A stretch of DNA of 64,000 nt from an uncultured bacterium (GCA_903861205.1 CAIOTC010000022.1:25-64024), one strand, 5' to 3'. Shown: positions 684 through 47,646, numbered from the stretch's first letter. The notes: generated from the sequence alone by a model not told the origin. A program made the numbers and translations.

Positions 684-2441
684 TCAAAAAATATCAACTA
701 TTCGTAAACGCAGTTCGGGGAAGTTTCGAAAGTTTGATTTTTCTAAAGTTGCGACGAGATTTATTTTTTTTCCGATTTCAACTGGTACGGGAAATTTTTC
801 CGGTGCGGAAAAAAATGAGATGGCAGTTACTTCATTATTATTTTCACGAAGCTTCAATTCCAAATGATTTTTTTCTTTACCGAATTGTTTGACCGCGGAA
901 ACCAAAGCGTTTTCAAACAAAAACATCGGCTTTGGATTTTCAAAACCAAACGGCGCGAATTTTTCCACGTCGCCGTATGTATTCCAATTAACATCGCCAA
1001 GCGATAACTTTTTATCAACCAAAATTTCTGATTCAATATTTTCCGATTTCATTTCCAAAAATGCTTCATTGAGCTTTTCTTCCAGCGTGTGAATATTTTC
1101 TTGCGATACGGAAAATCCGCCGGCGCCGTGATGACCGCCGTACTCGACAAAAACATCTTTAGCTTTTTCCATAAGAGCGACGACTGAAATTCCATTTCCG
1201 GATCGGCATGAACCTTTTATTATCGCGCTGCCGTTGCAACCTTCTCTGCCCCACAAAAAAACCGGACGATTATGTTCATCAGAAAAACTGTTGGCCACCA
1301 AACCAAGAAGCGATGGCTTCCAATCCGGATTGCCGAGAACCAAAACATTTTTCATAACTTGATCGCGATCTTTTATTTTCTTTTTTATTTCCTTGACCAT
1401 GCCAGCCACCACGCCTTTGCGTTCATCGTTTTTATTATTCAAATGCTCGGCCAATGTCCCCGCTTCAACTTCGTCAGTGGTCGAAAGTAATTTAAAAGCG
1501 TCAAGCGGAATGCCCATGCGTGAAGCGGCGTTGATGCGCGGAGTAATCATGAAAGTCAGATCATCCTCGGTCACGTATCTCTGATCAATTTTGAGAAGAT
1601 TGAAAAGTTTTGAAAGGCCGGCTCGCGGACTTTTGTGCAAAACTTTCAGACCAAAATACGCGAACACTCTGTTCTCGCCAAGGAGTGGAACCATGTCGGA
1701 AAGTGTTGCCAGACCGATCATGTCGAGCAACCATTTCTCCCAACCTACTGGAGAAATGGTTGCAATTTTCAATTTACAATTTCCAATTTCCAATGAATTT
1801 TTCAATGAATCAATTTCCAAACACAACGCTTGAATGACTTTAAAAATCACGCCAGCGCCGCATAGCATTTTTTCCGGATATTCGCAGTCGTTTTGTTTTG
1901 GATTTATGATGGCAAATGCGTCCGGCAAATTTGTTTTGGGGATGTGATGATCAGTGATGATGATATCCAAATTGTGTTTCTTGGCTTCCTCCACTTGCGC
2001 GCCATCGGAAACACCGCAATCAATCGTGATCAAAAGTGTCACACCATCCGCAACGAGCGAATCAATCGCTTCGTGATTTAATCCGAATCCTTCCTCGTTT
2101 CGCATCGGAATATAATTGACGAAATTTTGAAAATTTATTTTTTTGAAAAAATCATGCAGTGCCACTGCGCCGGGAATGCCATCCGCATCGTAATCGCTGT
2201 AAATCGCCACACGCTCATTTTTTTCGATAGCAGAAATAATTCTGTCAACAACTTTTTTCATATCCTTGAGCAAAAAAGGATCGTGAACGCCATTCTCGTA
2301 ATCAGGATTCAAAAATTTTTCCGCGCATTCTTCCGTGATGATACCGCGCGAATGCAGCAATGTCCGCGTGAGCGGAGAGTAACTTTCAAAAATTTTGTTG
2401 ATCTCATCCGGTATTCCTCCTCGCAACGAATATTTTTTCAT
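684..2441 (-). CDS. recJ: Single-stranded-DNA-specific exonuclease RecJ (DHH/DHHA1)
   Basis: 585 aa. Motifs IYSDYDADG, ITDHH and GGHHGAGG are typical of RecJ. It sits immediately upstream of rnhA in the same orientation. Confidence 0.88.
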   Translation of the reverse strand: MKKYSLRGGIPDEINKIFESYSPLTRTLLHSRGIITEECAEKFLNPDYENGVHDPFLLKDMKKVVDRIISAIEKNERVAIYSDYDADGIPGAVALHDFFKKINFQNFVNYIPMRNEEGFGLNHEAIDSLVADGVTLLITIDCGVSDGAQVEEAKKHNLDIIITDHHIPKTNLPDAFAIINPKQNDCEYPEKMLCGAGVIFKVIQALCLEIDSLKNSLEIGNCKLKIATISPVGWEKWLLDMIGLATLSDMVPLLGENRVFAYFGLKVLHKSPRAGLSKLFNLLKIDQRYVTEDDLTFMITPRINAASRMGIPLDAFKLLSTTDEVEAGTLAEHLNNKNDERKGVVAGMVKEIKKKIKDRDQVMKNVLVLGNPDWKPSLLGLVANSFSDEHNRPVFLWGREGCNGSAIIKGSCRSGNGISVVALMEKAKDVFVEYGGHHGAGGFSVSQENIHTLEEKLNEAFLEMKSENIESEILVDKKLSLGDVNWNTYGDVEKFAPFGFENPKPMFLFENALVSAVKQFGKEKNHLELKLRENNNEVTAISFFSAPEKFPVPVEIGKKINLVATLEKSNFRNFPELRLRIVDIF

Positions 2442-2793
2442 TTGGTACAGTTTACCACAAGTCTAGTGAAACAAAGGATTTTCAATTCGTTCCAAAGAAA
2501 AGGCCCACCCTGCGGTGAGCACTCTGCTAACTTATTACAAATCTTGGACCAAATCAACTTTCTTACATGGTGACAACTTTAAACCATCTTCCACACTCTT
2601 TTTCAATTCAACCAGATTGTTAGCAACTGACCGACCGGCCCCGTGAAGAGAAAACCAAGGCCTTATTTCAATCGGGAAACCTAAATGTTTTGATTGTTTG
2701 ATAGCTTCTTCCAAAGATTCGATGGATATCCGTTGGGGCATTTTGCCACTCCTTCCATAGAAGATACTATCACACATGCTATAATATTTCCAT

Positions 2794-3153
2794 ATGAACA
2801 ATTGTATATTTTGTAAAATTATAAAAGGAGAAATTCTGGCGCATAAAGTTTTCGAGGATGAAAATTTTTTGGCCTTTCTAGACATTCATCCGACATCTCC
2901 GGGACATGTTCAAGTCATTCCAAAAGAACATGTGAGATGGGTTTGGGACGTGGAAAATATCGGAGAATATTTTGAAGTGGTACGCAAAATCGCCAAGGCG
3001 CAACAAAAAGCATTTGAAACAGATTGGATACTTTCCAAAATTGTCGGTGACGAAATAGAACACGCACACATTTGGGTTTATCCGAACAACAAAGTTACTG
3101 GCGACAAAATGGATTTTGAAAATAATGCAGGAAAAATAAGAAATAGTCTGTAA
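2794..3153 (+). CDS. HIT (histidine triad) family hydrolase
   Basis: 119 aa. Starts CIFCKII, has HPTSPGHVQVIPKEH and the histidine triad EHAHIWVYP. TATAAT (2780-2785) lies 8 nt before the ATG, suggesting a leaderless transcript. Confidence 0.8.
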   Translation: MNNCIFCKIIKGEILAHKVFEDENFLAFLDIHPTSPGHVQVIPKEHVRWVWDVENIGEYFEVVRKIAKAQQKAFETDWILSKIVGDEIEHAHIWVYPNNKVTGDKMDFENNAGKIRNSL

Positions 3154-3460
3154 AGTCCATAAAGTCAAAAGCCTATAAAGTCAGTTCTTTAGACTCTTAA
3201 TAAGTCCTGACAATATTTTTGATATCTCAAAAGTCAGATTGTATAAAAAAATAAAATTATCTTTATTGAGATAATTTAGTTCAAGGGCCAAATACAACAT
3301 TGATCTAACTTCGCCAGACGAACCTTTCGCAATAAACAAAAATTTTTATAAATTTCTTTTGTAAGAATTTTTGATTTTTGCCAAGCTATTATATCTTCAA
3401 ACTTTTGAATCTGCATTTTGTGTTTACTTTATGGACTTTACAGACTTTATAGACTTTCAA
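3148..3460. mobile_element. MITE-like (miniature inverted-repeat transposable element) AT-rich insertion between the convergent HIT and pgk genes, bounded by 17-19 bp terminal inverted repeats ctgtaaagtccataaagtc
   Basis: Left 3148-3166 ctgtaaagtccataaagtc. The right side 3427-3445 is its reverse complement. The TIRs overlap both stop codons. Confidence 0.45.
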
Positions 3461-4580
3461 CTTCCAAGGCTTTCAGCCCTGGAAGAGTTTCGTTGACCAG
3501 GAAATCGAGCATCGCGCCACCACCGGTGGAGATGAAAGAAAATTTTTCTTCCAGTCCGAGTTTTTTAATTGACGCGAGTGTATCTCCCCCACCGACAATC
3601 GACTCCGCGCCACTTGTCACGATAAGTTCAGCCAACTGTTCCGTTTTATCGGCAAAACCATTTTCGTAATTTCCAAGCGGTCCGTTCCAGACAACAGTTT
3701 TGCTGCCGTCCAAAATATTTTTTAACTGTGTAATTGTTTCCGTTCCGGCGTCGGCCACAGTTTCGTCCGGCGCGATTTCATTTTGTTTTTTGAAAGAAAC
3801 ACTACCGTCATCTTTTGTCACGGTAACATCAGCCGGAAAAATTAATTTCGGATTTTTCAACATTTCCGAAATTCCAAAGTCACCTTCAGAAATTAATGAC
3901 TTCCCCACTTCAAAACCTTTGGCCTTGTAAATATCGGTGGCCAACGCTCCGCCGACAAAAACCGCGTCTGCCTTTTCCAAATATTTTTTGATGAGCGGCA
4001 TTTTTGTTTCGAACTTTGCTCCGCCTAAAATAAAAACAAAAGGATGAACAGGACTGAAAACTTTTGAGAGGTTTTCGATTTCTTGTCGCATTAAAAGTCC
4101 ACCATAACTTGGCAAAAATTCCGGCACGCCGACAATCGAAGCATGTTTGCGATGGCAAACGGAAAAAGCATCGTTAACGAAAATGTCCGCCATCTGTGAA
4201 AGTTTTTTGGCAAAGTCCGGATCGTTTTCTTTTTCGCCCGGATTGATCCGCAAATTTTCAAACATTAAAACGCCTTTGTCTTCCAGTTTCAAAAGTTTTT
4301 CAATCGCTTCCGGCGTGAAAAAGTCGCCACAAAAATCAACCGGCAGAAAACCGTTCAGATAATCGTGCATCGGCAAAAGCGATGAGGATTCTTTTCCTTC
4401 GCAATGAGCGATAATAATTACTTTCGCTTCCTTGGCTCGTAAAAAATCAATCGTCTGGAGTGATCTCTCCATGCGATACGGATCGGCCACCTTGCCGTCC
4501 ACAATGGGAACATTTAAATCAAGACGAAGCAATACTCTAACTCCCTTTAAGCTTGGAACTTCATCGATGTAATAGATCAT
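3447..4580 (-). CDS. pgk: Phosphoglycerate kinase
   Basis: 377 aa with the PGK N-terminal motif RVLLRLDLNVP and C-terminal GGGDT...STGGGA. Confidence 0.9.
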   Translation of the reverse strand: MIYYIDEVPSLKGVRVLLRLDLNVPIVDGKVADPYRMERSLQTIDFLRAKEAKVIIIAHCEGKESSSLLPMHDYLNGFLPVDFCGDFFTPEAIEKLLKLEDKGVLMFENLRINPGEKENDPDFAKKLSQMADIFVNDAFSVCHRKHASIVGVPEFLPSYGGLLMRQEIENLSKVFSPVHPFVFILGGAKFETKMPLIKKYLEKADAVFVGGALATDIYKAKGFEVGKSLISEGDFGISEMLKNPKLIFPADVTVTKDDGSVSFKKQNEIAPDETVADAGTETITQLKNILDGSKTVVWNGPLGNYENGFADKTEQLAELIVTSGAESIVGGGDTLASIKKLGLEEKFSFISTGGGAMLDFLVNETLPGLKALEVESL

Positions 4581-4683: not shown

Positions 4684-5442
4684 TTATTTGCTTTCCTCCA
4701 CTGCCTTTATTATTTCCCCAAATCTCTTCCCATCCAAACTGTCTCGCCCGACCAAAACCCCATCCACGCCATTTTTCATGATGTCGGAAATATTTTCAAC
4801 ATTGACAGAACCGCCGTACAAAATTTTCACTCCGTCCGCCGGAAGACCGTATATTTCGCGCAAAACTTTTTTTATGTAAATAGCCATTTCGTGAATATCG
4901 CGTCCGGCCATTGATTCGCTCGCGCCGATGGCCCAAACCGGCTCGTAGGCAATGACCAGATGGTCGAGAGATTTTTTGGAAACGTCGCGCAGATCGGCCA
5001 TGATTTGTCCGCGAACAAAAGAAAGATAATCGCCGTGAGCATCTCGTGTTTTTTCGCCGACACATAGCACGACCGTCATGCCATCACTAACAACAGCCGT
5101 CACTTTTTTGTTTATAATTTCATCACTCTCGCCTCTCGCTCGCCTCTCGCTATGCCCGACTAAACAGTGACTTACTTTGAACTGAGGCAACTGGCTGAAA
5201 CTGACTTCACCGGTGTGAGCGCCGAGCGGTTCATAAAAAGCGTCCTGAGCACCGACAAAAATTGATGTGCTGGCCGTGTTTGAAATAGCTGGAATGTAAA
5301 TAAATGGCGGACAGAGCACCACCTGCGTTTTTTTGATGTTTTTCATTCCGCGTTTGACGTCACTCGCGATTTTTTTGGCTTCCTCCAAACATTTCGGGTT
5401 CATTTTCCAATTCCCCACCACAAGTTTTTTTGGTTTCTTCAT
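4684..5442 (-). CDS. tpiA: Triosephosphate isomerase. The start is placed at the internal Met (MKKPKKLVVGNWKMN); the track ORF extends to 5478.
   Basis: GNWKMN, VGHSERR, AYEPVWAIG and YGGSV motifs. Confidence 0.9.
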   Translation of the reverse strand: MKKPKKLVVGNWKMNPKCLEEAKKIASDVKRGMKNIKKTQVVLCPPFIYIPAISNTASTSIFVGAQDAFYEPLGAHTGEVSFSQLPQFKVSHCLVGHSERRARGESDEIINKKVTAVVSDGMTVVLCVGEKTRDAHGDYLSFVRGQIMADLRDVSKKSLDHLVIAYEPVWAIGASESMAGRDIHEMAIYIKKVLREIYGLPADGVKILYGGSVNVENISDIMKNGVDGVLVGRDSLDGKRFGEIIKAVEESK

Positions 5443-5788: not shown

Positions 5789-5916
5789 AAATTTTGTCGA
5801 GACAAAGCAATTTTGGGGGCTCACGGACGCTGGCGAGCGGAGTGCGAGCGCAAAAAATAGCAATTTTTTGACGCGCACCCCAAAATTGTTTTGGCTCGTA
5901 AGAAATTTGCGTCGTC
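5789..5916 (-). repeat. Structured element family C copy 1 (inverted orientation)
   Basis: Shares the core cggacgctggcgagcggag and the flanking long IR with the copies at 18.6 and 49.5 kb. Confidence 0.65.
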
Positions 5917-7369
5917 ACTGCACCTCCTGCCAGGAAATAGTTTGGTATTGGTCAGTCGTCAGCGGGAATGACGGCGGAGGGGCGTATAGCAGGTTGGCGT
6001 CGTAAATAATATTTCTGGTTTGGTAGCCGGTGCCGTCCGTATAGGCAAAACCGTACCTCGAATAACTGCCGATCATCCCATACAAAGTGATCGTGTCGCG
6101 CACGTATTGCGCCGTACAATCGCTTTCGTAATAAAATCTTCCCACCCGCCCATTTTGCGAAATAAGCGCGGCATCGATGCGCAAGTCGTCAGCGCTGTAA
6201 AGACCGTTATTGATATTTTCCTGGGCGATAAGGCCGATGGAATCCTGCCCGTCGTAGTTGGTGTAAAGCAAATCGTCATTTATCGTTATACTCGTCCTCT
6301 GCGAGGGATTGTCTGGAAATTTCCCAGCCACAACGGTCACTCTGGCAGTGTTTATCTGCCCGTCAATCCAAACATTATCCTCCACAAAAATAATTCCGTT
6401 CCCCGGCATTGGGTAATTGGAAACGAAAGTTTGCGTTTTGACACTCCACGTTCCCCAATCGCTCTGGTTGCCGTTATTGCCGCAATGATCCGGCAGAGGT
6501 TGGAGCTGAGTTACTTTGTACAAATCAAAAGTGTCGTTCGTTTTTAAAACCAGATGATAGCCGAGCACGCCGGAACTGGAAATATATTTGCCACCGGCTT
6601 GAGCTTTGCTTTTCATATCAGCCATGTCTGTGGTGATGCCGGCAAAGTCGACAACCGGCACGGGAAACTGCCTGCCTGCCTCAAAAACATCCGGCCGATT
6701 TGGAACGGGATTTCCGGGAGATTCCAGTGGACGATAATCAGTGTTTACGCCACTGCCCGGAGGTGGATTGACGTGAGTGTGAACGCCAAATTCCTGTCCG
6801 CCGGTATGGTCAGGGTCGTCGAATTTGCTCACTCCGCTCGAGACAACATTGTGCGCAATACCGTCAAAGCGAATTCCGCCATTTGACATAATCGGACCAA
6901 AAACTTCCGTGCCTTCGCCAAAACGCATGTCGTCGTTGGCCACCACGGCAAATTTGGCCAGCGACGGCTTGGCCAGCTGAACGAGAATGGAGCGAGAAAC
7001 AGTCGCGTCAGCCAAAATTTTGCCGGTTGATTTGACTTTGACCATCGTCCAACCGGTTGGCGGCGCGGTAATATTGAGAGTGAAAGTACCGATCTTTGTG
7101 CCGTCTTTGTCGAAAAAATCGTGAACGTACGGACCGGCGTGTCCGGTACCGTCTTGGAAATCGGTCGAAGCGTGCGCCAGATGCCATCTATAATAATCAA
7201 CTCCGGCTTCGGCGATTTGCAAAGCTTGTTCACGCTCAACAGCCAACCGCGAAGCTTTGATGTTCACTCCGGCCCAGCTGACCAAAGCGCCGATGATAAC
7301 CACGGAAATGGTACCAAAGACGAGAGCTTGGACGAGAATGGAACCAGATTGTAATGATTTTTTGAACAT
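5915..7369 (-). CDS. PilX-N-like type IV pilus-associated protein (minor pilin / pilus tip-like)
   Basis: 484 aa. N-terminal hydrophobic anchor followed by REQALQIAEAGVDYYRW (PilX_N-like). It is co-directional with the pilin genes. Confidence 0.55.
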   Translation of the reverse strand: MFKKSLQSGSILVQALVFGTISVVIIGALVSWAGVNIKASRLAVEREQALQIAEAGVDYYRWHLAHASTDFQDGTGHAGPYVHDFFDKDGTKIGTFTLNITAPPTGWTMVKVKSTGKILADATVSRSILVQLAKPSLAKFAVVANDDMRFGEGTEVFGPIMSNGGIRFDGIAHNVVSSGVSKFDDPDHTGGQEFGVHTHVNPPPGSGVNTDYRPLESPGNPVPNRPDVFEAGRQFPVPVVDFAGITTDMADMKSKAQAGGKYISSSGVLGYHLVLKTNDTFDLYKVTQLQPLPDHCGNNGNQSDWGTWSVKTQTFVSNYPMPGNGIIFVEDNVWIDGQINTARVTVVAGKFPDNPSQRTSITINDDLLYTNYDGQDSIGLIAQENINNGLYSADDLRIDAALISQNGRVGRFYYESDCTAQYVRDTITLYGMIGSYSRYGFAYTDGTGYQTRNIIYDANLLYAPPPSFPLTTDQYQTISWQEVQ

Positions 7370-7471
7370 AACTGATTAAAAAATTTTTAATTTAAAATTT
7401 TTAATTTTTATTGAATTTTCAATGATTTAATTTTTAAATTTAAACATTCATTAAGAATTCTAAATTAAAAA
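7370..7471. repeat. Family A copy 2
   Basis: See copy 1. Confidence 0.7.
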
Positions 7472-8101
7472 TTATAAATTGTCTTTTAGATTCCGCAGAT
7501 TAACCTGCGACGTCACAATCATCGGCGTCGGCGCGCGGTTTTTGTCTCTGTCAATTATAACAGTAATTTTAACCAAGCGGACGGTTGACGCCGTTACCGG
7601 CTGTGACAAAGGAGAACCGGTGCCGGAATAATCGGCGGAATAATATTGAAACAGAGGAGCGGTCGAGCTGGAGATGACGCCGGAAAAAATGGTCGTCACT
7701 TTTTCATCATCATCGTCATAGGTGTACGGACTTCCGGTTGGCACCACCACGCCTCTTTTGATATCCGATCCGCTCAAAAAATATCTGACTTTGTCCTGCA
7801 AACCGTCGTTGTTAACATCACTGTAAAAAGTGACCGATGACACGCCGGCTGAAGCGATGGCGTAAGCGCCGTTCTCCGACGGACTGGCCTCTCGCATCTC
7901 GGCCACCATCACCTTGACCACGTGCCGGGCATCGAGCTGGGCGTTCATACTGCCGCTCAAATTGGAATTCAAGGAAAAAACATTAACCATAAAAGTGGCA
8001 ACAACAGTGGAAACAAGGCCGAGAATGGCGAGGGAGATTAGGATTTCGACGAGAGTGAAGCCTCGACTGAAATTATTTATTTTTAAATTTTTAACAAACA
8101 T
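7472..8101 (-). CDS. Type IV pilin / pseudopilin with a class III prepilin signal
   Basis: N-terminus ...NNFSRG|FTLVEILISLAILGLV shows the G/FTLVE prepilin cleavage and methylation motif. Confidence 0.75.
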   Translation of the reverse strand: MFVKNLKINNFSRGFTLVEILISLAILGLVSTVVATFMVNVFSLNSNLSGSMNAQLDARHVVKVMVAEMREASPSENGAYAIASAGVSSVTFYSDVNNDGLQDKVRYFLSGSDIKRGVVVPTGSPYTYDDDDEKVTTIFSGVISSSTAPLFQYYSADYSGTGSPLSQPVTASTVRLVKITVIIDRDKNRAPTPMIVTSQVNLRNLKDNL

Positions 8102-8213
8102 TATTTTATGAAATTTTTAATTTAAAATTTTTAATTTTTAATGAATTTTCAATGACTTAATTTTTAAATTTATACATTCATTAAAAATTTTAAATTAAAA
8201 ATTAAAAATTATT
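8102..8213. repeat. Family A copy 3
   Basis: See copy 1. Confidence 0.7.
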
Positions 8214-10046
8214 CTAGTTCGTCTGCATTGTCACGCTGGTTGACTGCCAATCCCCCGAAATCGTCACCGGAACATCCTGGTTCGCGTAGCCGGTTTTGGA
8301 GAGGTGCATGGTGTAAGAGCCGGAAGCAAGGGCCGAAAAAGAAACTTGGCCGGGCGGAGTGCAGGAAAGAGTGTAGGTGAAAGAAATGTTGGAAATGTTC
8401 GGTGCCGTGATAGTGGAAGTTGTATCCAAAAACAATTTGTACCGCAAAAATCTGTTGCCGTTGTTGGTCGAACTGATATTTTTGTTGGCGTTGGTGTAAT
8501 ACGTACCCGCCGTGCCATCCGGCCCGGTGAAATTCCAGGTGGCGCCGTCGTTGTTTGTGGCAATTTGCAAGCGCACGGTCGATCCGACCGGCTCGTCAGT
8601 CGGCGTCCAATCAATTCCCTGGAAATTGCTTTGCGCTCCGGTGTCAAATGACGACGAAATCAAACTGCCGCTTGAAACATAATCTCCGAAAACTTTTTTG
8701 AGAGTGACATCTCCGACCGGACTGGCCGTTTCCATGTTTCCATCGGATGAAAAATATTTCGTTTTGTCCGTCGATGTCGCCTGTCCCCCTCCGCCGGACC
8801 AATCCGTTTGTCCGAGAAATCCTTGACCGGTAATTTTAATGGAATCGTACCCGGCCTTGGTCAAATCGACGGAAACGCCGGAAAGCGGAAGCCCCGTCAC
8901 ACCATCTTTGACCGTCACCAGAAGAGTTTTTGGATTTTTGGGCGCGACAATGAGCGAAACGGCTTGGGTACTGTTCGGAGCCAGAGTTACCGGCGAGAGC
9001 GGATTAAGACCGATGAAATCATAGGCCGTATCGATGTTTGTAATAGTGTAAGTGTCCCATTCCATGCCGGAGAGAGTTAGCAAGCCACTTCCATTTGTCA
9101 CTTTGTTCTGATTATATTTCGGCACGACAGGATTAAGGCCGACATTTTTGCTGCTCAAAAGGGTAAAATCGATTGTTCCTACATTCGCGCAAGTGTCGGA
9201 AAGAGATGAAAAAGAAAAAGTGGCCAAGCGATCAATGGCGAAGCTGACCTGGGTAACCTGGCCTCGCAAAACTGTGGCATGCGGTTTGGTCGGATGAGGA
9301 TTGTTTTGAACGGCCTGATATGTTTTGTCCGTCGAGTAACCGGATTTGGTCACGGTGATTTCGTAAGCATTCCCACCGGGCGGAACGTCAACGATTTGGA
9401 GCATGCCGGCGGAATTGGTCACGTCGTCAACGACAATGTGCGGAGAAATCAGATTGTTCTCGATGTGCACGGCCGCGTCCGGCAGGACCACGCCGTTGGC
9501 GTCAAAAACTTTGACGAACAGCGCGCCATTCGACGAGGAATTTTCCAAACTTTTCGGAGCGACGCGGGTGGTCACAATCATCGGATTAAAATTTTTGCAG
9601 GTGGCACAGGAAATTTCGATTTCCACCGTTTTAAAATCGGCCGGCGCGGTATCGTTTGGCGTGCCACCGAGCGTGCCGTCGAACGGATCATCCACATTGC
9701 GCACAGTGGTCATGACAGAAAAAGTTTCCGCACCGCGATTCAAACTCTGAATGTGCGTCAATGTGCCGGAAGGAATACCGCCGGAAATACCGACGCTGGC
9801 ATACGGCATATTGCGAACAATTTCTAACTGCTCGTTGACCAAATCGATGGCGTCGATTTTAGCCCGACTAACAGAAACCACATTGAAAATGGAAGTGTAG
9901 GCGTTGTAAACCGCCACGACGATAACAGTAAAAACAGCAACACCGACGATAAGCTCCACCAGAGTAAAACCTAGGGAAAATTTTTTGTTGTGGTGATTGT
10001 TAAGTTTTCTTGACATAAAATTTTCAATTTCCAATAAATGAATCAA
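8214..10046 (-). CDS. Large prepilin-type N-terminal domain protein (pilin-like, 610 aa)
   Basis: Leader ...KKFSLG|FTLVELIVGVAVF (prepilin motif) followed by a long T/S/G-rich beta-type extracellular region. The real start may be the internal Met at about 10016. Confidence 0.7.
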   Translation of the reverse strand: MIHLLEIENFMSRKLNNHHNKKFSLGFTLVELIVGVAVFTVIVVAVYNAYTSIFNVVSVSRAKIDAIDLVNEQLEIVRNMPYASVGISGGIPSGTLTHIQSLNRGAETFSVMTTVRNVDDPFDGTLGGTPNDTAPADFKTVEIEISCATCKNFNPMIVTTRVAPKSLENSSSNGALFVKVFDANGVVLPDAAVHIENNLISPHIVVDDVTNSAGMLQIVDVPPGGNAYEITVTKSGYSTDKTYQAVQNNPHPTKPHATVLRGQVTQVSFAIDRLATFSFSSLSDTCANVGTIDFTLLSSKNVGLNPVVPKYNQNKVTNGSGLLTLSGMEWDTYTITNIDTAYDFIGLNPLSPVTLAPNSTQAVSLIVAPKNPKTLLVTVKDGVTGLPLSGVSVDLTKAGYDSIKITGQGFLGQTDWSGGGGQATSTDKTKYFSSDGNMETASPVGDVTLKKVFGDYVSSGSLISSSFDTGAQSNFQGIDWTPTDEPVGSTVRLQIATNNDGATWNFTGPDGTAGTYYTNANKNISSTNNGNRFLRYKLFLDTTSTITAPNISNISFTYTLSCTPPGQVSFSALASGSYTMHLSKTGYANQDVPVTISGDWQSTSVTMQTN

Positions 10047-10128
10047 TTATCCAATTGAACAATTGATTCATTGGGAAATTCATTGGAAATTGGAAATTGT
10101 TACTTGAAAATTATTTTGAGTTTGCATT
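10047..10128. repeat. Cargo-less copy of the IR pair that bounds the four-helix-bundle element (solo miniature element)
   Basis: aattttcaatttccaataaatgaatcaatt...aattgattcattgggaaattcattggaaattggaaattg matches the ends of the element at 61262-61705. Confidence 0.5.
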
Positions 10129-11346
10129 TTACAAGGCATCCGCCAATGAATACGTCGGTCCCAACATCGATATCGCAAACACCCCCACCGCCGCGCCGAT
10201 AATAATCATCAGGACCGGCTCGATAATCGACGACATATCTTTCGTTTTCTGATCAACTTCATCCTCGTAAAATGTAGCCACGCCCAGAAGCATTTCCCCT
10301 ATTTTACCCGTCTCCTCGCCAACGGAAACCATTTCGCCGACAAAAAGCGGATACAATTTTTCATGCTTTACGAATATTGCCGAAATTTGTTCGCCTTTCT
10401 GAATAGCCACTTCGATTTCGTTCAGCACGTCTTTGTAGTAGGAATTTTGAACGACGTCCTTTGTCACGCCGATGGCAATAACAATATCAACGCCGGACGA
10501 AAGAAGCGACGAGAGCGTCCGAGCGGTGCGAGCCGAGTTAATCTGCTGAGTTATTTCGCCGATGACAGGCGTGCGCAAAAGTATCGTGTCCCAAATTCTC
10601 TGGCCCAGCGTTGTGCGCAAACCCCAGATGACAAACATGACCAAAGCAACAACTCCGACAGCCACAAACAGAAAGTAATTTTTCAAAAAATCGCTCATGG
10701 CAATAATAATGCGTGTCGAGAGCGGCAAGGCCACCCCAAGTCCTTTGAAAGTGGATGTCAGTGTCGGCACCATGTAAATCATCATCAGCACGCCGATGAC
10801 CAGCATGAGCGAAAAAATAACCGCCGGATACATCATAGCACCGCGGATTTTTTTGGTCAGCTGGTACGACTTTTCCATCTGATTGCTGACGTTTCGCAAG
10901 GCCAGCACCAGATTGCCGGATTCCTCGCCAGCCCGAACCATCGAAACGAAAAGGGTGTTGAAAACGTTCGGATATTTTTTCATGGCGTCCGAAAGCGTCT
11001 CGCCTTTGGAAAGCGAATCATTCAAATCATGCAAAATATTTTTCAACTTCCCTTTCTTGGCCTGACGCTCCATGATAGAAAGTCCGCGAGTGATGGGAAG
11101 CCCGGCGTCAATCATCTGCCCGAGGTTTCTGGAAAAAGTGATTTTGTCGTGCGCTTTGACACCGCCGAGAAAAGGAAAAAGATTGTTCAAAGAAAAATTA
11201 TTCCCATCTTTGGCCTCTGTCGCCGAGACAACGGTACTGCCATCTTTTTTGAGCAAATGATACAGCTCGAATTTATCCTTGGCATCCATTACGCCTTCAA
11301 TATTTTTCCCCTCTTTATCTATGGCTTTGTAGTTGAAAATTGTCAT
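10129..11346 (-). CDS. pilC: Type IV pilus assembly platform protein PilC (GspF family)
   Basis: 405 aa with two GspF-type repeats and three transmembrane segments. It lies in the operon with pilB. Confidence 0.85.
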   Translation of the reverse strand: MTIFNYKAIDKEGKNIEGVMDAKDKFELYHLLKKDGSTVVSATEAKDGNNFSLNNLFPFLGGVKAHDKITFSRNLGQMIDAGLPITRGLSIMERQAKKGKLKNILHDLNDSLSKGETLSDAMKKYPNVFNTLFVSMVRAGEESGNLVLALRNVSNQMEKSYQLTKKIRGAMMYPAVIFSLMLVIGVLMMIYMVPTLTSTFKGLGVALPLSTRIIIAMSDFLKNYFLFVAVGVVALVMFVIWGLRTTLGQRIWDTILLRTPVIGEITQQINSARTARTLSSLLSSGVDIVIAIGVTKDVVQNSYYKDVLNEIEVAIQKGEQISAIFVKHEKLYPLFVGEMVSVGEETGKIGEMLLGVATFYEDEVDQKTKDMSSIIEPVLMIIIGAAVGVFAISMLGPTYSLADAL

Positions 11347-11350
11347 TTAT

Positions 11351-11926
11351 TTATTTTTTAACGACAAACCCAATCGGATTTTTTCGTGATTCCGACGGAA
11401 TTTTTCTAATTTTATTAATTTCGTCAACCAAAAATCCTATTATCGAGGAATGTTTTTTTTGAGCATTTTCAACTCTTTCCATTCTGTTTGCTAAATCCTT
11501 ATTACCAGCAATCATCTCTCGCAATTTAACAAAAGCTCTAATTATCAAAATGTTCATTTGCACAGCCTGTTTGCTTTTTAAAACAGAAGAAAGCATGGCG
11601 ACTCCGTGTTCGGTAAAAACATATGGTAAATAACGACGACCACCATAACTTGAGGTTGCAAATTGTAACCTCAAGTTTGAGGTCATAATTTGTGACTTCC
11701 AATTTTCAGATTCTTCCTTGGTAAGTTGAAACATAAAATCTTTTGGGAAACGGTCCTTATTGCGACGTACAGCCAAATTCAAGTTTTTTGTAAGCACCTG
11801 ATACAACTCTGCCAAATCAGAGTCAAACATCACTTTTTCTCCACGAATCAAATAAATCTGACGTTCAACACGTTCAAGCGGAATTAAATTTTTACTGTCA
11901 ACTTTTTTCTTTTGAGCAAGCTTCAT
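11351..11926 (-). CDS. ORF6N/ORF6C (KilA-N-related) domain protein. Start placed at internal Met MKLAQKK.
   Basis: IRGEKVMFDSDLAELYQVLTKNLNLAVRRNKDRFPKDFMFQL (ORF6N domain) and LPYVFTEHGVAMLSSVL (ORF6C domain). It is a paralog of 33551..34108. Confidence 0.7.
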   Translation of the reverse strand: MKLAQKKKVDSKNLIPLERVERQIYLIRGEKVMFDSDLAELYQVLTKNLNLAVRRNKDRFPKDFMFQLTKEESENWKSQIMTSNLRLQFATSSYGGRRYLPYVFTEHGVAMLSSVLKSKQAVQMNILIIRAFVKLREMIAGNKDLANRMERVENAQKKHSSIIGFLVDEINKIRKIPSESRKNPIGFVVKK

Positions 11927-12125
11927 ATTCACTATAATTGTATCAAAAAATATTTTATTTTTCACAAAATATGTGCACAAGAAATTTTTTTTGAAAACAA
12001 AAAAGCCCTCCGGTGAAGGATAGGCGTGTGTACATCTGTACACTGGTTCGTGGGTCTGCCACTTGGTTACTGCTGACTGGTTAAGAAGAAGTGCTACGCA
12101 ATCGTACTACGGAAGGGTTGGCAAG

Positions 12126-12332
12126 TTAGAGTAGATGGATCGGCAATTCCGATATGTTGTCGGAGTTGCAATCCGGGCATTCGACGGGAACTTTTCCGCC
12201 ACCACCGATATGCCGGCATTCATCACATCTTATTCCCAATTTCTTTTCCATCATTGTCGCGCAATCGAATTCATCACTGCACAATGGGCAAGGAACAAAA
12301 ATAAACTTTTTGTCATTGCACGTTTTACACAT
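12126..12332 (-). CDS. Small double zinc-ribbon protein (four CxxC pairs)
   Basis: 68 aa with CKTC..CPLC..CDEC..CPDC. It sits between the toxin-antitoxin pair and the ORF6N gene. No family assignment. Confidence 0.4.
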   Translation of the reverse strand: MCKTCNDKKFIFVPCPLCSDEFDCATMMEKKLGIRCDECRHIGGGGKVPVECPDCNSDNISELPIHLL

Positions 12333-12455
12333 ACTTTCTCCTCTTTTCAGTGAACTTTCCGGGAATCTGCCGGATCAGAATTCTGCTACTATTATACACC
12401 AAAAGATACCATCTTGTCAAGCAAAGTGGTTAAATATGGCTATAAATAAGGGTTT

Positions 12456-12716
12456 TTATCTGTATGAATCGTGGTCTCCCACCGATAATATGGCAACCTC
12501 GTCTTTTGACATGTATTGAAAAACAATTCTGATCTTGTAGTTCACGGAAAAACTGAAACAGCCGGAAAATTTTCCATGCAGTTTATGAACTTTCAAATAT
12601 TCGTGGTTTTTTTCATTTTCAAACAGATCGATCTTCTCCAAAATCTCCTCTTTCAAAGACGGCTCAATTTTCTTTAGCTGCTTTAGGAAGCTGGGCGCAT
12701 ATATGAACTTTATCAT
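12456..12716 (-). CDS. Type II toxin, RelE/ParE superfamily
   Basis: 86 aa. KFIYAPSFLKQLKKI...LHGKFSGCFSFSVNYKIRIVF...AILSVGDH is the RelE/ParE fold pattern. Its start overlaps the stop of the upstream antitoxin (ATGA). Confidence 0.7.
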   Translation of the reverse strand: MIKFIYAPSFLKQLKKIEPSLKEEILEKIDLFENEKNHEYLKVHKLHGKFSGCFSFSVNYKIRIVFQYMSKDEVAILSVGDHDSYR

Positions 12717-12934
12717 TTTATTTTTTTCAAGAGACTGCGGAGATCACCTTTCAAGCCTTTTCCGAGAGTGATTTCCCTCTGGGCACGCAAAACAGCCTCG
12801 ACAACTTCGTCTTCCTCGAGTCGCCTGATGGCTTTGCGCACAACGTCAGCTTTGTTGGCCGCTCGTCCTTCCTTCACCATTTTATTTATGAAATTTTCCA
12901 ATTCGCCTGAAATGGGCACTGATAATGTGGTCAT
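12713..12934 (-). CDS. Antitoxin, ribbon-helix-helix / ParD-like
   Basis: 73 aa. MTTLSVPISGELENFINKMVKEGRAANKADVVRKAIRRLEE is typical of ParD/CopG antitoxins. It overlaps the toxin gene by 4 nt. Confidence 0.6.
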   Translation of the reverse strand: MTTLSVPISGELENFINKMVKEGRAANKADVVRKAIRRLEEDEVVEAVLRAQREITLGKGLKGDLRSLLKKIK

Positions 12935-13093
12935 GGTTTTATTTAGGCGAACATTTTGTAGTCAAAATGTTTTAGCCGGTATTATATTATAATATGATAT
13001 TATCATACATTACCATGAAATCAAAGTGAAAAAATCCCTCGGCTTTCGGCCACTCCCTTTAAGAAAGGGAGATTCTAAATCAAATTTGGAAGT

Positions 13094-14848
13094 TTACTCT
13101 GACGCTACTCTCAAAACTTCTTCAATAGTTGTAGATCCCTGCACTGCCTGGAAAATGCCATCCTCGATCATGGTCAGCATACCTTCGGCTTCGGCTTGTT
13201 TTTGAATGGCGTCGGTTGTGCCGTCCTTTAAAATGACTTCCTTAATAGCCGGGGAAACTTTCATTATTTCGTGAATGCAAGCGCGACCGCTATACCCTTC
13301 CTCCGAGGCGGCACCTTTTTTCGGTCGCCAGAACGGCACCTTGTCCCAGGTGTCGGATTTGCCGACGATTTTTTCTTCCTGCAGAGCTTTCAAAATTTTG
13401 TCCATGTTGGCCGATTTGCCGAGAGTGGCCAGTTCAGGTTTTGTCAGGAAATATTTTTCCTTTTGGTCGGAAAGTTTTCGAACCAGTCGCTGGCCGATGA
13501 TGATATTTATGGTTGAAACGATGAGGAACGGTTCGACTTTCATATCCATCAGTCGCGGTACAGCGCCGGCGGCCGAGTTAGTGTGCAAAGTGGAGAGGAC
13601 GACGTGGCCGGTCAGCGAAGCGTTGATGGCGAGAGAGGCCGTTTCGTTGTCGCGAATTTCACCGACCATAATAATGTCCGGATCCTGGCGAACCAGCGTG
13701 CGCAATCCGTTGGCAAATGTCAAACCAATTTCCGAGCGAACTTGCGTTTGGTTGATGCGCTTCATTTGGTACTCGATCGGATCCTCGACGGTCGAAATGT
13801 TAACGTCCGGTGTATTGAGAATGTCGAGCACAGTATATAGTGTGGTCGTTTTTCCGGAACCAGTCGGGCCGGTGGTCAAAATCATGCCGGTCGTGGACTT
13901 GAGCGCGCGGTGAATTCGCTCGAGACCTTCGCCGTGAAAGCCAAGAACTTCCAGGGTGAAATTGGAAACATTCTCGCGAAGCAAACGCATGACAGTTTTT
14001 TCGCCGTAATACGTAGGCAATGTCGAAACGCGAAAGGAAACTTTTTCGCCGTTCATGTCGATTTTGAAACGGCCATCCTGTGGCAAGCGTTTTTCGTCGA
14101 GTTTGAGCGCGGAAAGAACTTTGATGCGCGCGGTAATCGAGGCGGCCGTGTTTTTCGGCAAAATCATGGCGTCGTGAAGCAAACCGTCGATGCGATAGCG
14201 CACCAAAAGCTCCTGCTCCTGCGGTTCGATGTGAATATCGGAAGCGTTTTGCAAAATGGCGTGTTTCAAAAGTGTGTCGACAATACGCACCACCGGCACG
14301 TCGTCGGCCAATTTTTTCAAATCATCTTCGGAAACATCCTCACCATCACCCGCGTCAGGAATGCTTTGAAGTTGGACAGCATCTTTGGCAATGAGATCAC
14401 CGAACTCGGCTTTGAGCGATTTTTGATACTGGAGCAGAACGCTTTTCATCGACTCGCCGTCGGTGAGCCTCGGCAAAATTTTCAAGCCGACTTTCTTTTT
14501 GATGAAATCGATGGCCGTCAAATCCTCGGTGTCGAGCATGGCTACCTCGAGCGCCGTGTCTGTTTTTTTGAAAGCAATGATGTTGTGGTTGCGGGCAATC
14601 GGTTCGGGCACAAGCGAGAGAACTTCGAACGGAATTTTTTCCGTTTTCAAATCGACAAAAGGAATGCCGAGAATGTAAGCTTGCATCCGGCGCAAATCGT
14701 CCTCGGTCAGTTTTCCACCATTGACCAAAATTTTGCCGATCCCCTCACCCGTTTTCTCGTGATCCTTTTCGGCCAGCGTCACATCCGCCCGAGAAACAAG
14801 ACCCGAGTCCAAAATAAAATCCCTAAGTTGTGATTCTTCAATGTGCAT
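13094..14848 (-). CDS. pilB: Type IV pilus assembly ATPase PilB (GspE family)
   Basis: 584 aa. Walker A GPTGSGKTTT, Asp box, His box, and an N-terminal GspII_E-type domain. Confidence 0.9.
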   Translation of the reverse strand: MHIEESQLRDFILDSGLVSRADVTLAEKDHEKTGEGIGKILVNGGKLTEDDLRRMQAYILGIPFVDLKTEKIPFEVLSLVPEPIARNHNIIAFKKTDTALEVAMLDTEDLTAIDFIKKKVGLKILPRLTDGESMKSVLLQYQKSLKAEFGDLIAKDAVQLQSIPDAGDGEDVSEDDLKKLADDVPVVRIVDTLLKHAILQNASDIHIEPQEQELLVRYRIDGLLHDAMILPKNTAASITARIKVLSALKLDEKRLPQDGRFKIDMNGEKVSFRVSTLPTYYGEKTVMRLLRENVSNFTLEVLGFHGEGLERIHRALKSTTGMILTTGPTGSGKTTTLYTVLDILNTPDVNISTVEDPIEYQMKRINQTQVRSEIGLTFANGLRTLVRQDPDIIMVGEIRDNETASLAINASLTGHVVLSTLHTNSAAGAVPRLMDMKVEPFLIVSTINIIIGQRLVRKLSDQKEKYFLTKPELATLGKSANMDKILKALQEEKIVGKSDTWDKVPFWRPKKGAASEEGYSGRACIHEIMKVSPAIKEVILKDGTTDAIQKQAEAEGMLTMIEDGIFQAVQGSTTIEEVLRVASE

Positions 14849-14892
14849 ACGATACGAAAATTATGCGAATGATACGAATGGCTACGAATAAA
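14849..14892. promoter_or_regulatory. Array of 9-11 bp spaced TACGAAT motifs in the pilB / Clp-ATPase divergent intergenic region
   Basis: gatacgaaaattatgcgaatgatacgaatggctacgaat. The same words recur at 16276-16386 and (inverted) at 40329-40368. Confidence 0.45.
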
Positions 14893-15017
14893 TACAATAT
14901 AAGTATAACAAAAAAATTTTTATATCACATGAAAAATTGTGCACAAGAAATATAAGATTGACAATCTGACAGAAGGTGTATGATGAATACAGAAATAGTA
15001 CCTTGAAAGGAGAAACG

Positions 15018-16148
15018 ATGCCAAAGAAAAAACTTCGGCTTCTGGACCCGACACTTACGGGCGACAGAGCCAGAGGACTCGGGATTAATTTGCGCAAAAA
15101 GATCATTGGTCAAGACACGGCCATTGACCAAGTCGTGAACGTTTACCAAACTTTTCTGTCGAACATGTCACAACCGGGGAAACCTATTGGAAGTCTTCTT
15201 TTCCTTGGACCGACCGGCACGGGAAAAACGAGAATGGTTGAGGCCGTTGCAGAGAGTTTGTTTGGAGATCCGCGCGCTGTCATAAAAGTTGACTGCGCCG
15301 AATTTCAGCACAGCCACGAAATTGCCAGACTGATTGGCGCTCCCCCGGGATATTTGGGACACAGGGAGACTAAACCATTTTTGAGCCAGGAAGTTATCAA
15401 CCAGTGGCAAACTGATGAAATCAAACTGAGCTTCGTTTTGTTCGACGAGATCGAGAAAGCAAGTGACACTTTGTGGAATTTGCTTTTGGGAATCTTGGAC
15501 AAAGCCACGCTAACCCTCGGCGACAATCGTAATGTGGATTTTTCCCGATGCATGATTTTCATGACAAGCAACTTGGGTTCAAGGGAAATTGATTCTTTTC
15601 TCAGACCGGGATTTGGGTTCGTAAATCAGACGGGCGGAAGCAAACTCGGCGAAAAAATAAAAAGAGCCGGTGAAGAAGCGGCGCGCAAACGGTTTAGTCC
15701 GGAATTCATCAACCGAATCGACAAAACAATCGTTTTCAACTCTCTCGGAAAACCGGAGTTGGAAAAAATTCTTGATTTGGAAATTAGAAATGTCCAAGGC
15801 AGAATACTGACCTCGACGGCGGGTTCAGCTTTTGTCATCAATGTGACCAGAGAAGCCCGAGGTTACTTGCTAGCGGAGGGCACCGATCCCAGATACGGAG
15901 CGCGCAATCTGAAACGGACCATCGAACGAGGAATCGTGCACCCATTGTCAAATCTGATCGCCACAAGCCAAGTCGGTTGCGGAGATTTAGTCCAAATAAG
16001 CTTTGACCCCAAAACATCCGAGATTCTTTTTTCCAAATTGAGCGAGGAAATGTCACCTCGCGAAATAATCCAAGCCGTCGACTATGAAGTGACCGACGAA
16101 GAATATCGCGCGGTTACCGCCTCAATGAGCAAGGCAGTATCGAGATGA
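15018..16148 (+). CDS. Stand-alone Clp-type AAA+ ATPase corresponding to the ClpA/ClpB D2 module (AAA_2 plus ClpB D2-small). Start placed at MPKKKLRLL.
   Basis: GQDTAIDQV...LFLGPTGTGKTRMVEA...IKVDCAEFQHSHEIARLIGAPPGYLG...VLFDEIEKA...GARNLKRTIE. No D1 domain or N-domain is present. Confidence 0.7.
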   Translation: MPKKKLRLLDPTLTGDRARGLGINLRKKIIGQDTAIDQVVNVYQTFLSNMSQPGKPIGSLLFLGPTGTGKTRMVEAVAESLFGDPRAVIKVDCAEFQHSHEIARLIGAPPGYLGHRETKPFLSQEVINQWQTDEIKLSFVLFDEIEKASDTLWNLLLGILDKATLTLGDNRNVDFSRCMIFMTSNLGSREIDSFLRPGFGFVNQTGGSKLGEKIKRAGEEAARKRFSPEFINRIDKTIVFNSLGKPELEKILDLEIRNVQGRILTSTAGSAFVINVTREARGYLLAEGTDPRYGARNLKRTIERGIVHPLSNLIATSQVGCGDLVQISFDPKTSEILFSKLSEEMSPREIIQAVDYEVTDEEYRAVTASMSKAVSR

Positions 16149-33550: not shown

Positions 33551-34108
33551 TTATTTCGTATTAAAACCAATTTTTGATTTTGGTTTTACTTTTTCAACAA
33601 TTAGTTGGCGAATTGCATCAAAAATAGAAGCAAACTGACCATCATATTTTTGCTCCAAATCATCAAGTCTTTTAGCAATATCTTTATGCGATAACATCAA
33701 TTCGCGAATTCGCACAAATACTCTCATAATTGCAATGTTCATTTCAATAGCTCTGTTACTATTTAAAACACTGGATAACATAGCAACACCTTGTTCAGTG
33801 AATACATAAGGTAAATTACCAATGTTGCGTTTTGATGCGGTCACACTTTGTGACCGCATATTGACATTTGGTATCACAAATTGTGATACCAAATGAAGCG
33901 AATTTGTCTCTTTGATATTAAGTTGAAACATAAAATCTTTCGGAAACCTTTTTATGTTCCTTTTTACCGCTTGATTGAGAACTTTTGTCGGCACACCATA
34001 CAATTCTGCTAAATCACTATCCATCATCACTTTTTGACCACGAATAAAATATATTTTTCTCTCTATAAACTCTGCCGGAACCAAAACTTTTAAACTTATT
34101 TTACTCAT
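33551..34108 (-). CDS. ORF6N/ORF6C domain protein (second paralog)
   Basis: IRGQKVMMDSDLAELYGVPTKVLNQAVKRNIKRFPKDFMFQL and LPYVFTEQGVAMLSSVL. Confidence 0.7.
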   Translation of the reverse strand: MSKISLKVLVPAEFIERKIYFIRGQKVMMDSDLAELYGVPTKVLNQAVKRNIKRFPKDFMFQLNIKETNSLHLVSQFVIPNVNMRSQSVTASKRNIGNLPYVFTEQGVAMLSSVLNSNRAIEMNIAIMRVFVRIRELMLSHKDIAKRLDDLEQKYDGQFASIFDAIRQLIVEKVKPKSKIGFNTK

Positions 34109-34114
34109 GAAAAA

Positions 34115-34654
34115 TTAAAAAGAATATTTATTTGTAACATATTTTTCTAACTCCTTTGTCAATTCGTAAACCAAATCTTTTTCGGGTGATTCAGGACAAC
34201 TTTCCAAAAACTTGCGAATCAAAACTATATATTGGTCGTGATAAGGTTTCTCCGGTTCTGACTGACGGATTTTGGTTATCCCTCTCAGATTAGCGGTGAA
34301 ATCAGCCAATTTTATTATTTTTGCTTTTGGTGATGTGTGATTCAGGTGTTCATAATATTCAACTTGCTGAATTTTGTTATAATTTTTTGGATGAGAAACT
34401 TCTTGGACCAAATCGGCCACCTCTTTTGAAAAAGTCTGTTCCAACTCCTCGTATGTTGTTTCAGTGTCTTCCAAAGTGTCGTGGAGAATAGCTGAAACCA
34501 AAATGTCCGGATCTTCAACATAAAATTCGTTTTGCAAAACTGCCAAAACATCAGGCCAATGATTGTCCGCGCCGGCTTCTTTGAATTTCCGTATGGCAAA
34601 TTCTTTTGCATGTTCAATTTTTTCAGCAGATTCCATATTTTTTATTTCTTCCAT
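34115..34654 (-). CDS. Small HD-domain hydrolase of the RelA/SpoT type, a small alarmone hydrolase (SAH) that is Mesh1-like
   Basis: VSAILHDTLEDTETTYEELEQTFSKEVADLVQEVSH closely matches the RelA/SpoT HD consensus AALLHDVVEDT...EVA.LV.GVTK. There is no synthetase domain. Confidence 0.7.
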   Translation of the reverse strand: MEEIKNMESAEKIEHAKEFAIRKFKEAGADNHWPDVLAVLQNEFYVEDPDILVSAILHDTLEDTETTYEELEQTFSKEVADLVQEVSHPKNYNKIQQVEYYEHLNHTSPKAKIIKLADFTANLRGITKIRQSEPEKPYHDQYIVLIRKFLESCPESPEKDLVYELTKELEKYVTNKYSF

Positions 34655-34659
34655 AAATT

Positions 34660-47486: not shown

Positions 47487-47514
47487 TATAAAATTTTTTC
47501 AATGTTCGTCCGTG

Positions 47515-47646
47515 CAGTATTTTTCCTCGACCGCCAGTCGTCTCCTGCGGACGACCGGCTCTGATCCTCGGCCGTGACTTGTCAAGATGGAATGCCTTGA
47601 CAAGTCCAAGCTCACGGCCTGCGGAGCCGAGGAAAAACACTGCACT
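47515..47646. repeat. Family B copy 2
   Basis: Same core ctgatcctcggcc..gacttgtcaagatggaatgccttgacaag..cca.gct.ca.ggcctgcggagcc. The outer stem has a different sequence but is still complementary. Confidence 0.7.

Follow-up and report, generated by a model that had tools for sequence, protein, structure and literature searches.

In a stretch of DNA of 64,000 nucleotides (nt) from an uncultured bacterium (GCA_903861205.1, CAIOTC010000022.1:25-64024), which we refer to as the window and whose positions are counted from its first letter, the type IV pilus genes pilB and pilC are separated by 1,747 nt (11347-13093). The interval carries four co-oriented open reading frames (ORFs) on the minus strand, encoding an antitoxin, a toxin, a small protein with four CxxC pairs and an ORF6N-domain protein. 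Comparison with related genomes suggests that these 1.75 kb were probably built up in at least two, and likely three, steps at a joint that behaves as an insertion hotspot. In the first, old step, a gene of the ORF6N/PDC-S05 family encoding approximately 190 amino acids (aa) would have inserted between pilB and pilC in an ancestor that the window organism shares with two related lineages (L090 and L094), to be inherited with the operon from then on. In the second step, younger and belonging to the lineage of the window, a self-contained toxin-antitoxin module of ~0.6 kb would have landed between pilB and the ORF6N gene, and a separate unit of ~0.4 kb, consisting of a consensus promoter, the gene for a 68-aa zinc-ribbon protein and a terminator, would also have landed there. 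The components are of known kinds, namely a RelE/ParD-type toxin-antitoxin pair, a PDC-S05/ORF6N gene and an orphan zinc ribbon, and do not make up a new kind of system. Genes and predicted signals of the region are listed below in the direction of transcription.

13094-14848, minus: pilB, extension ATPase of the type IV pilus, forming the upstream edge of the variable joint (Pfam T2SSE, E = 6.6e-123; MshEN, E = 6.5e-12)
13029-13071, minus: weak, doubtful terminator-like element after the pilB stop, with a hairpin (13053-13071), a small hairpin and a U-run (read from the sequence)
12950-13030, minus: predicted promoter and operator of the toxin-antitoxin module, -35 TTCACT (13030-13025) and -10 TATGAT (13007-13002) (promoter scan)
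12713-12934, minus: antitoxin, ParD-type ribbon-helix-helix (RHH), 73 aa (Pfam ParD_antitoxin, PF03693, 24.4 bits, cut-off 21)
12456-12716, minus: toxin, RelE/StbE family, predicted mRNA interferase type, 86 aa (NCBIfam TIGR02385, 34.2 bits, cut-off 27.9)
12391-12420, minus: predicted consensus sigma-70-type promoter for the zinc-ribbon gene, TTGACA, 18 nt, TATAAT (promoter scan, 12/12)
12126-12332, minus: small zinc-ribbon protein, 68 aa, four CxxC pairs (CxxC motifs; no match in Pfam, PHROG or PADLOC)
11998-12020, minus: intrinsic-terminator-like hairpin and U-run between the zinc-ribbon gene and the ORF6N gene (terminator scan)
11937-11965, minus: weak candidate promoter for ORF6N-pilC, GTGAAA, 17 nt, TACAAT, extended TG (promoter scan, 9/12; consensus match only)
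11351-11926, minus: ORF6N-domain protein, 191 aa (Pfam ORF6N, PF10543, E = 2.6e-34; stop codon 4 nt before the pilC ATG)
10129-11346, minus: pilC, platform protein of the pilus, forming the downstream edge of the joint (Pfam T2SSF, E = 2.5e-54, two repeats)

An earlier note on this DNA had described the region as a pilus operon split by an accessory cassette, and pilB, pilC and every intervening ORF that it listed were recovered on the minus strand. The start of the ORF6N gene is not GTG 12043, where the longest ORF opens: the gene calls in public contigs place it at ATG 11926.

The spacing of pilB and pilC was compared among PilB loci from 80 species-representative genomes (PilB identity 68-86%), in 72 of which both the end of pilB and the start of pilC are visible. 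The gap measures at most 30 nt in 42 of these relatives and 31-160 nt in 22, that is, no more than 160 nt in 64/72, with a median of 18 nt; in the closest representative (L003, PilB 86% identical) it is 59 nt. Because tight packing of the two genes is the rule among the 72 relatives, the gap of 1.75 kb is by this comparison derived rather than ancestral, which bears out the earlier suggestion of an insertion between two normally adjacent genes.

The ORF6N gene appears to be older than the toxin-antitoxin and zinc-ribbon genes, because it sits at the same joint without them in the sister lineages L090 and L094. Among 5.8 billion proteins, the best matches of its product are P0003 (80% identical) and P0007 (69%), both of which come from other Paceibacteria, where their genes lie between pilB and pilC. 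In L090 the pilB stop is followed after 4 nt by the ORF6N gene and, 17 nt further on, by pilC; in L094 the two spacers are 31 nt and 11 nt. Toxin-antitoxin and zinc-ribbon genes are absent from both loci, and the gene order 3' of pilC (pilin-like protein, pseudopilin and 484-aa protein, spanning 5915-10046 in the window) is the same as in the window. As these spacers (4-31 and 11-17 nt) are too short for a promoter or a terminator, pilB, ORF6N and pilC must, judging from the layout, lie on a shared transcript in L090 and L094. A fourth lineage, L150, carries an ORF6N gene (71% identical) 16 nt upstream of pilC, preceded by an ORF that is not PilB. The copies located between pilB and pilC share the C-terminal ending PIGFVxKK, and a tblastn search of the GTDB representatives L003-L082 found none with an ORF6N gene in the pilB-pilC gap.

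Neighbor-joining trees of PilB and of PilC both have the topology (window,(L090,L094)), with L003 and L008, which lack the ORF6N gene, as the sister group. For concatenated PilB and PilC, bootstrap support is 78% for the group of the window, L090 and L094 and 20% for the window with L003 and L008. The ratio of nonsynonymous to synonymous substitution rates (dN/dS) of the ORF6N gene is 0.06-0.11, similar to that of PilB and PilC, with synonymous sites being saturated, and dN between the window and L090 is 0.125 for ORF6N, 0.121 for PilB and 0.229 for PilC. These values indicate that the ORF6N gene is under purifying selection and is kept as a member of the operon.

The protein itself matches the Pfam ORF6N family along nearly the whole profile (positions 2-86 of 86; 117.8 bits against a gathering score of 27.8). 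The ORF6N part of the earlier ORF6N/ORF6C assignment thus stands, whereas the ORF6C part does not: a Pfam search of the protein yielded no ORF6C match at E up to 0.01, and the C-terminal half is predicted to be a long helix. The structure model (predicted local distance difference test score, pLDDT, 71) consists of a small alpha/beta N-terminal domain and a single long helix formed by residues 119-173. Foldseek comparison of this model with the PDB returned no match with E under 0.4 and no more than a weak similarity to MerR and Dachshund-domain proteins, and a profile search of PDB sequences gave no match. In PADLOC, the protein matched three models of the phage-defence candidate PDC-S05 (E = 3.7e-57, 8.2e-54 and 1e-37), with the second of these alignments covering positions 4-166 of 177, near full length; in PHROG it matched an anti-repressor family (E = 1.3e-25). 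One representative of PDC-S05, carrying a (Virulence_)RhuM domain, lowered the plating efficiency of T7 and T5 approximately 1000-fold in E. coli (bioRxiv 10.1101/2024.09.26.614923). The ORF6N family is large, with ~8,000 matches at E up to 1e-10, and occurs in hosts with a GC content of 0.27 to 0.64, sometimes in tandem copies, and it crosses phyla at 60-68% identity, for example between Patescibacteria and Bryobacteraceae. A metagenome scan with the window protein gave distant homologues only (at most 60% identity), and 0/46 of their loci adjoin pilB or pilC. Among the papers that could be searched, we found none that connects ORF6N with pilus operons. Within the proposed model, the protein would bind DNA as a dimer and act in defence or regulation.

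The toxin-antitoxin pair had been called ParDE-like with overlapping reading frames. The frames do overlap, by a 4-nt ATGA with the antitoxin first, and the antitoxin is recognized as ParD-type by Pfam; it also matches NCBIfam TIGR02606 (E = 2.4e-10), with 40.3 bits below the cut-off of 46.2. The assignment of the toxin does not hold. Because it passes the TIGR02385 cut-off yet fails that of Pfam ParE_toxin (19.8 bits against 23), the pair is, by these profiles, a ParD-type antitoxin with a RelE-type toxin and not ParDE. The best matches of the toxin are RelE/StbE, HigB and YoeB, and it is also similar to the PHROG family "RelE-like toxin" (E = 6.5e-11). It has 401 homologues, all of which, where the source is named, come from Patescibacteria, and it keeps 23/23 of the invariant family positions, including R63, H82 and Y85.

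Upstream of the pair, an inverted repeat (12978-13014) overlaps the -10 box and is accompanied by a second palindrome of 9 bp (12950-12972). Homologous modules in L147 and L155 are preceded by the same conserved operator/-10 block, TATGATAWTATCATATTA. Across modules, conservation reaches upstream to about the -35 box and downstream to the stop codon of the toxin gene, and the unit is for this reason taken to be ~0.6 kb long. We checked the genomic context of three toxin relatives (78%, 67% and 65% identical; L145, L147 and L155). The module lies co-oriented between rpsG and fusA in L147 and L155 and directly upstream of fusA in L145, with no zinc-ribbon or ORF6N gene next to it in any of the three; the antitoxins paired with the homologous toxins in L145 and L147 are 75-87% identical to that of the window. 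Searches of plasmids, phages and viral contigs (PLSDB, INPHARED and IMG/VR) with the 1.17-kb insert or the toxin gave no match. The module is best seen as a younger, independent and lineage-specific addition. In operation, the antitoxin would repress its own promoter at the palindrome and the freed toxin would cleave ribosome-bound mRNA, an action that would make the module hard to lose and that is possibly abortive for phage. Low GC content as a sign of a foreign toxin-antitoxin module was considered and rejected: GC content at third codon positions (GC3) of the toxin-antitoxin and zinc-ribbon genes is ~0.49, close to that of the genome.

All examined relatives of the module (L145, L147 at 4685-5286, and L155-L162) belong to the str operon, where they are found after rpsG and/or just before fusA, sometimes together with further cargo such as an NYN-domain gene, a 210-aa ORF and an 84-aa ORF. 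The module of L147 is bracketed by a direct repeat of 27 nt (25/27 matching) that includes the -35 box. The equivalent positions in the window match at 13/17 only, a weak repeat around the toxin-antitoxin module that is a lead and not a finding; it is also the sole candidate for the remnant repeats that the earlier note had expected, the outer borders of the proposed cassette showing short, chance-level matches only.

The zinc-ribbon gene was described earlier as a double zinc-ribbon ORF. Among 1.84 billion representatives it has only three homologues, all small proteins (47-55% identical), and all three keep 8/8 of the Cys residues of the four CxxC pairs. Its promoter is the sole 12/12 match within 9900-15200 and is followed by a good ribosome-binding site, AAGAGGAG, before the ATG. 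The single-sequence structure model was unusable (pLDDT 49), and its sequence matches in the PDB were spurious hits to tau. We regard the gene as a third unit and, by its absence from L090 and L094, as a separate, younger and lineage-specific addition.

Taken together, the insertion adds at least two predicted promoters and one credible predicted terminator between pilB and the ORF6N gene of the window. The hairpin at 11998-12020 has a folding energy of -16.1 kcal/mol (z = -2.67), with 2/200 shuffled sequences folding as well. Because of this terminator, transcription of pilC and the pilin genes of the window probably requires either read-through or the weak promoter at 11965-11937, and ORF6N and pilC would form one transcription unit that is uncoupled from pilB. 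The hairpin after pilB was rejected as a terminator: its stem is 8 bp long, its z-score against shuffled sequences is -0.09, the U-run is not next to the stem and the terminator scan missed it. As for the route of entry, we found no integrase, transposase or clear target duplication in the insert region, and when the 3' flank of pilB was aligned at the DNA level with six relatives, divergence was too high for an insertion point to be defined. Homologous recombination through the conserved flanking genes is the likeliest route, which is speculation on our part.

The same joint is occupied by other genes in relatives of the window organism, as follows.

L052: HicB and HicA
L029: RHH antitoxin and a decayed RelE-like gene
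L075: RelB antitoxin and DUF6176
L011: Nudix gene and small ORFs
L006 and L007: high-GC ORFs without an assigned family
L024: diversity-generating retroelement, HicB and a bAvd-like gene (below the Pfam cut-off)

Since unrelated cargo occupies one and the same joint in several relatives, the pilB-pilC joint is, on this comparison, a small insertion hotspot in this clade of Paceibacteria, with ordinary accretion of known kinds of genes. Large insertions are concentrated in the clade nearest the window (PilB at least 80% identical). More generally, toxin-antitoxin modules seem to occur commonly in the neighborhood of the pilus locus; in L090, for example, an 85-aa ORF and a PemK-family toxin form a pair (134-713) a few kb upstream of pilB. 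In the more distant relatives L034 and L054, convergent unrelated genes follow pilB and no pilC is present within 8 kb, and the linkage of pilB and pilC is itself broken in some lineages.

The earlier note had offered a single mobile cassette as one explanation. That all four genes entered together in this manner is very unlikely. The genes are contiguous and co-oriented, a dip in GC content extends across 11200-13000 and assemblies from metagenomes of the same population are interrupted within it, all of which would fit a joint arrival. However, the ORF6N gene occupies the joint by itself in L090 and L094, and likewise lies 5' of pilC in L150, while relatives of the toxin-antitoxin module occur at rpsG-fusA in the absence of the other genes. 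Three separate promoters and an internal terminator are predicted within the supposed cassette, neither a recombinase nor border repeats were found, and the GC dip is due to the ORF6N gene and the spacers (GC3 of 0.31 for ORF6N against ~0.49 for the toxin-antitoxin and zinc-ribbon genes). The reconstruction in steps is itself open to several objections. The tree that groups the window with L090 and L094 was made from the flanking genes themselves and has just 78% support. Pairwise identities of the ORF6N proteins (80% for the window and L090, 76% for L090 and L094) conflict with the PilB/PilC tree, which pairs L090 with L094. GC3 of the ORF6N gene is ~0.30 in the window (11351-11926), L090 (5001-5582) and L094 (5001-5579), compared with 0.40-0.59 in the flanking pilB and pilC, a difference that persists despite the saturation of synonymous sites. 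The promoters and terminators of the window are consensus matches only, and the hairpin after pilB folds no better than shuffled sequence. The RhuM domain carried by the protective PDC-S05 protein is not among the Pfam matches of the window ORF6N protein at E up to 0.01. Finally, the term hotspot is descriptive and not statistical, the pilB-pilC joint being the only one surveyed for insertion frequency, without a control. The codon composition, which shows no drift toward the neighbors in three lineages, and the discordant identities could be explained if the ORF6N gene was not inherited vertically and instead came to this hotspot time and again, by insertion or replacement, from a mobile pool, and the family is clearly exchanged horizontally. 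We nevertheless consider this distinctly unlikely, given that the copies between pilB and pilC are mutually nearest among the 5.8 billion proteins and have a common C-terminal ending, and that the dN of ORF6N is similar to that of the flanking genes.

The other explanation in the earlier note was co-regulation with piliation, which is conceivable for the ORF6N gene only; for this gene it is plausible from the gene layout. In a stronger form, the ORF6N gene, and possibly others, would be a working part of the pilus system, either as a regulator of pil genes or as a defence gene co-expressed with them because pili are phage receptors. The close packing of the gene with pilB and pilC in L090 and L094, its stop codon 4 nt from the pilC ATG in the window, purifying selection as strong as that on PilB and PilC and retention in at least three species-level lineages all point in this direction, as do the DNA-binding ORF6N domain, a predicted long helix suited to dimerization and the PDC-S05 match. 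Yet most relatives with the same operon lack the gene, co-transcription reflects neighborhood and not function, and the family comprises over 8,000 close members from various phyla with a wide range of GC content, with none of the 46 metagenome loci adjoining pilB or pilC; in addition, a paralogue in the window lies in an unrelated low-GC islet. We therefore regard a functional tie as rather unlikely. Still more doubtful is a specific version of this idea, in which one clade of Paceibacteria recruited the ORF6N/PDC-S05 gene as a genuine component of its pilus operon and the joint serves as a "guard" hotspot for defence-type cargo. If this were true, expression of ORF6N would be tied to the pilus, which is likely both phage receptor and DNA-uptake organelle of these epibionts, and toxin-antitoxin modules, a retroelement-diversified protein and PDC-S05 would collect at the joint because they are co-expressed with the receptor. 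Whether fixation of the ORF6N gene in the pilus operon reflects such a tie is the most interesting point raised by the locus.

Stepwise accretion, our preferred reading, can be set against known systems. The toxin-antitoxin module resembles type II hybrids of a RelE/StbE toxin and a ParD/RHH antitoxin in its antitoxin-first order, 4-nt overlap, protein lengths (73 and 86 aa), palindrome over the -10 box and scores above the TIGR02385 and Pfam ParD cut-offs. It differs in that its subfamily is seen mostly in Patescibacteria, inside core operons (pilB-pilC here and rpsG-fusA in relatives), and in that it has no match in the plasmid and phage collections searched. The ORF6N protein shares strong, near full-length profile matches with PDC-S05, but not the Virulence_RhuM domain of the representative that protects E. 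coli, and its gene is embedded in a pilus operon rather than in a defence island. As in integration hotspots at core genes, the flanks are conserved and the cargo (types of toxin-antitoxin, retroelement, Nudix gene, defence candidate) varies between lineages; unlike them, the site lies inside an operon, between motor ATPase and platform protein, in very small genomes, the cargo is 0.3-2.8 kb long and no integrase, tRNA or attachment site is present at the joint. Integron cassettes are likewise runs of small, co-oriented, unrelated genes. They are usually promoterless, whereas each of the window genes has its own predicted promoter. An integron reading was rejected: neither in the region nor near it is there an integrase ORF, and the 3' ends of the genes lack inverted repeats resembling attC.

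In Patescibacteria, type IV pili are believed to play a central part in attaching to the host and taking up DNA. These bacteria have tiny genomes, for which reports of recognised mobile elements or defence systems are few (PMC12366544). The locus suggests that accessory or defence-type genes can settle inside core operons at tight joints, pilB-pilC in this case and rpsG-fusA for the same toxin-antitoxin family. It may serve as a case of an insertion that became fixed and would have rewired transcription of essential neighbors, and as a concrete example of a PADLOC candidate whose gene is conserved in a defined genomic setting. In practice, the result is chiefly that such loci can be annotated better.

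The source organism is, by its closest relatives, an uncultivated, ultra-small patescibacterium (Paceibacteria), because the relatives of its PilB (68-86% identical, 80 genomes) are encoded by metagenome-assembled genomes of Paceibacteria/Parcubacteria. T2SSE, T2SSF and N_methyl proteins are encoded in one co-oriented cluster of the window, as in type IVa-like pilus operons, and the genes neighboring the cluster are recJ, pgk, tpiA, nusA, tig, clpP and rny. Downstream of pilC, the cluster continues as follows.

8214-10046, minus: large pilin-like protein (Pfam N_methyl and CarboxypepD_reg)
7472-8101, minus: pseudopilin (Pfam N_methyl)
5915-7369, minus: 484-aa protein (no family match in Pfam)

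The arrangement of pilB and pilC is real and not an assembly artefact, because independent contigs from other samples cover every join at 99.9-100% identity. These are L085 (window 13509-11723), L089 (12625-11132) and an ENA contig of 7,932 nt whose gene order is identical to that of the window. An error of assembly or binning could be suspected from two assemblies of one sample that are broken at exactly window position 12803 and at ~12102-12110 and from contig L086, which has 31 nt of differing sequence to the left of window position 13012; in view of the independent contigs, it is extremely improbable. All pieces of the two assemblies are 100% identical to the window, and L086, from another sample, matches window 13012-12075, its 31 unrelated bases being absent from the window and too short to interpret. 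Both observations may reflect heterogeneity of the population at the toxin-antitoxin and zinc-ribbon segments, or assembly noise.

We also made several observations on the surroundings of the operon and on related loci. In the window, pilB is preceded by a divergent ClpB-like AAA gene (14976-16148). In L090 (1-2437) and L094 (1-2916), pilB is closely preceded by genes for a ComM-like Mg-chelatase and a LysM/M23 peptidase; their window homologues (45897-49248) are ~31 kb away from it, and the gene order indicates a rearrangement beside the pilus operon between the window and these two lineages. The second ORF6N/PDC-S05 paralogue of the window (33551-34108, minus; 49% identical) belongs to an islet of low GC content (0.33-0.35; 33551-35157), where it adjoins an HD-domain gene (34115-34654) and a Nudix gene (34660-35157); the joint of L011, too, has a Nudix gene among its cargo.

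A scan with Rfam of the window and three loci returned tRNAs only, with no family in the joint or in the leader hairpins of relatives. Those hairpins accompany the high-GC ORFs found at the joint in L006 (8790-8960), L007 (9996-10130 and 11427-11560) and L024 (2120-2230), which are preceded by TATAAT, a conserved GTTCTTTAAcA and the hairpin. The base of the hairpin is GCCAYAG...CTRTGGC, and its inner stem varies between copies while pairing is kept. This block, not present in the window, could represent either a conserved 5' leader or one end of an element. In L024 (contig JBEBJM010000061.1; PilB 85% identical), which carries the label Nitrospira, probably through a binning error, the diversity-generating retroelement directly follows pilB (region 1700-3550), together with a HicB-like ORF (1703-1957, minus) and a bAvd-like ORF (3309-3548, minus). 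Its target ORF (2143-2838) contains a variable repeat (2685-2794) that corresponds to a template repeat at 3181-3290, and 14/14 of the mismatches between the two repeats fall at template adenines.

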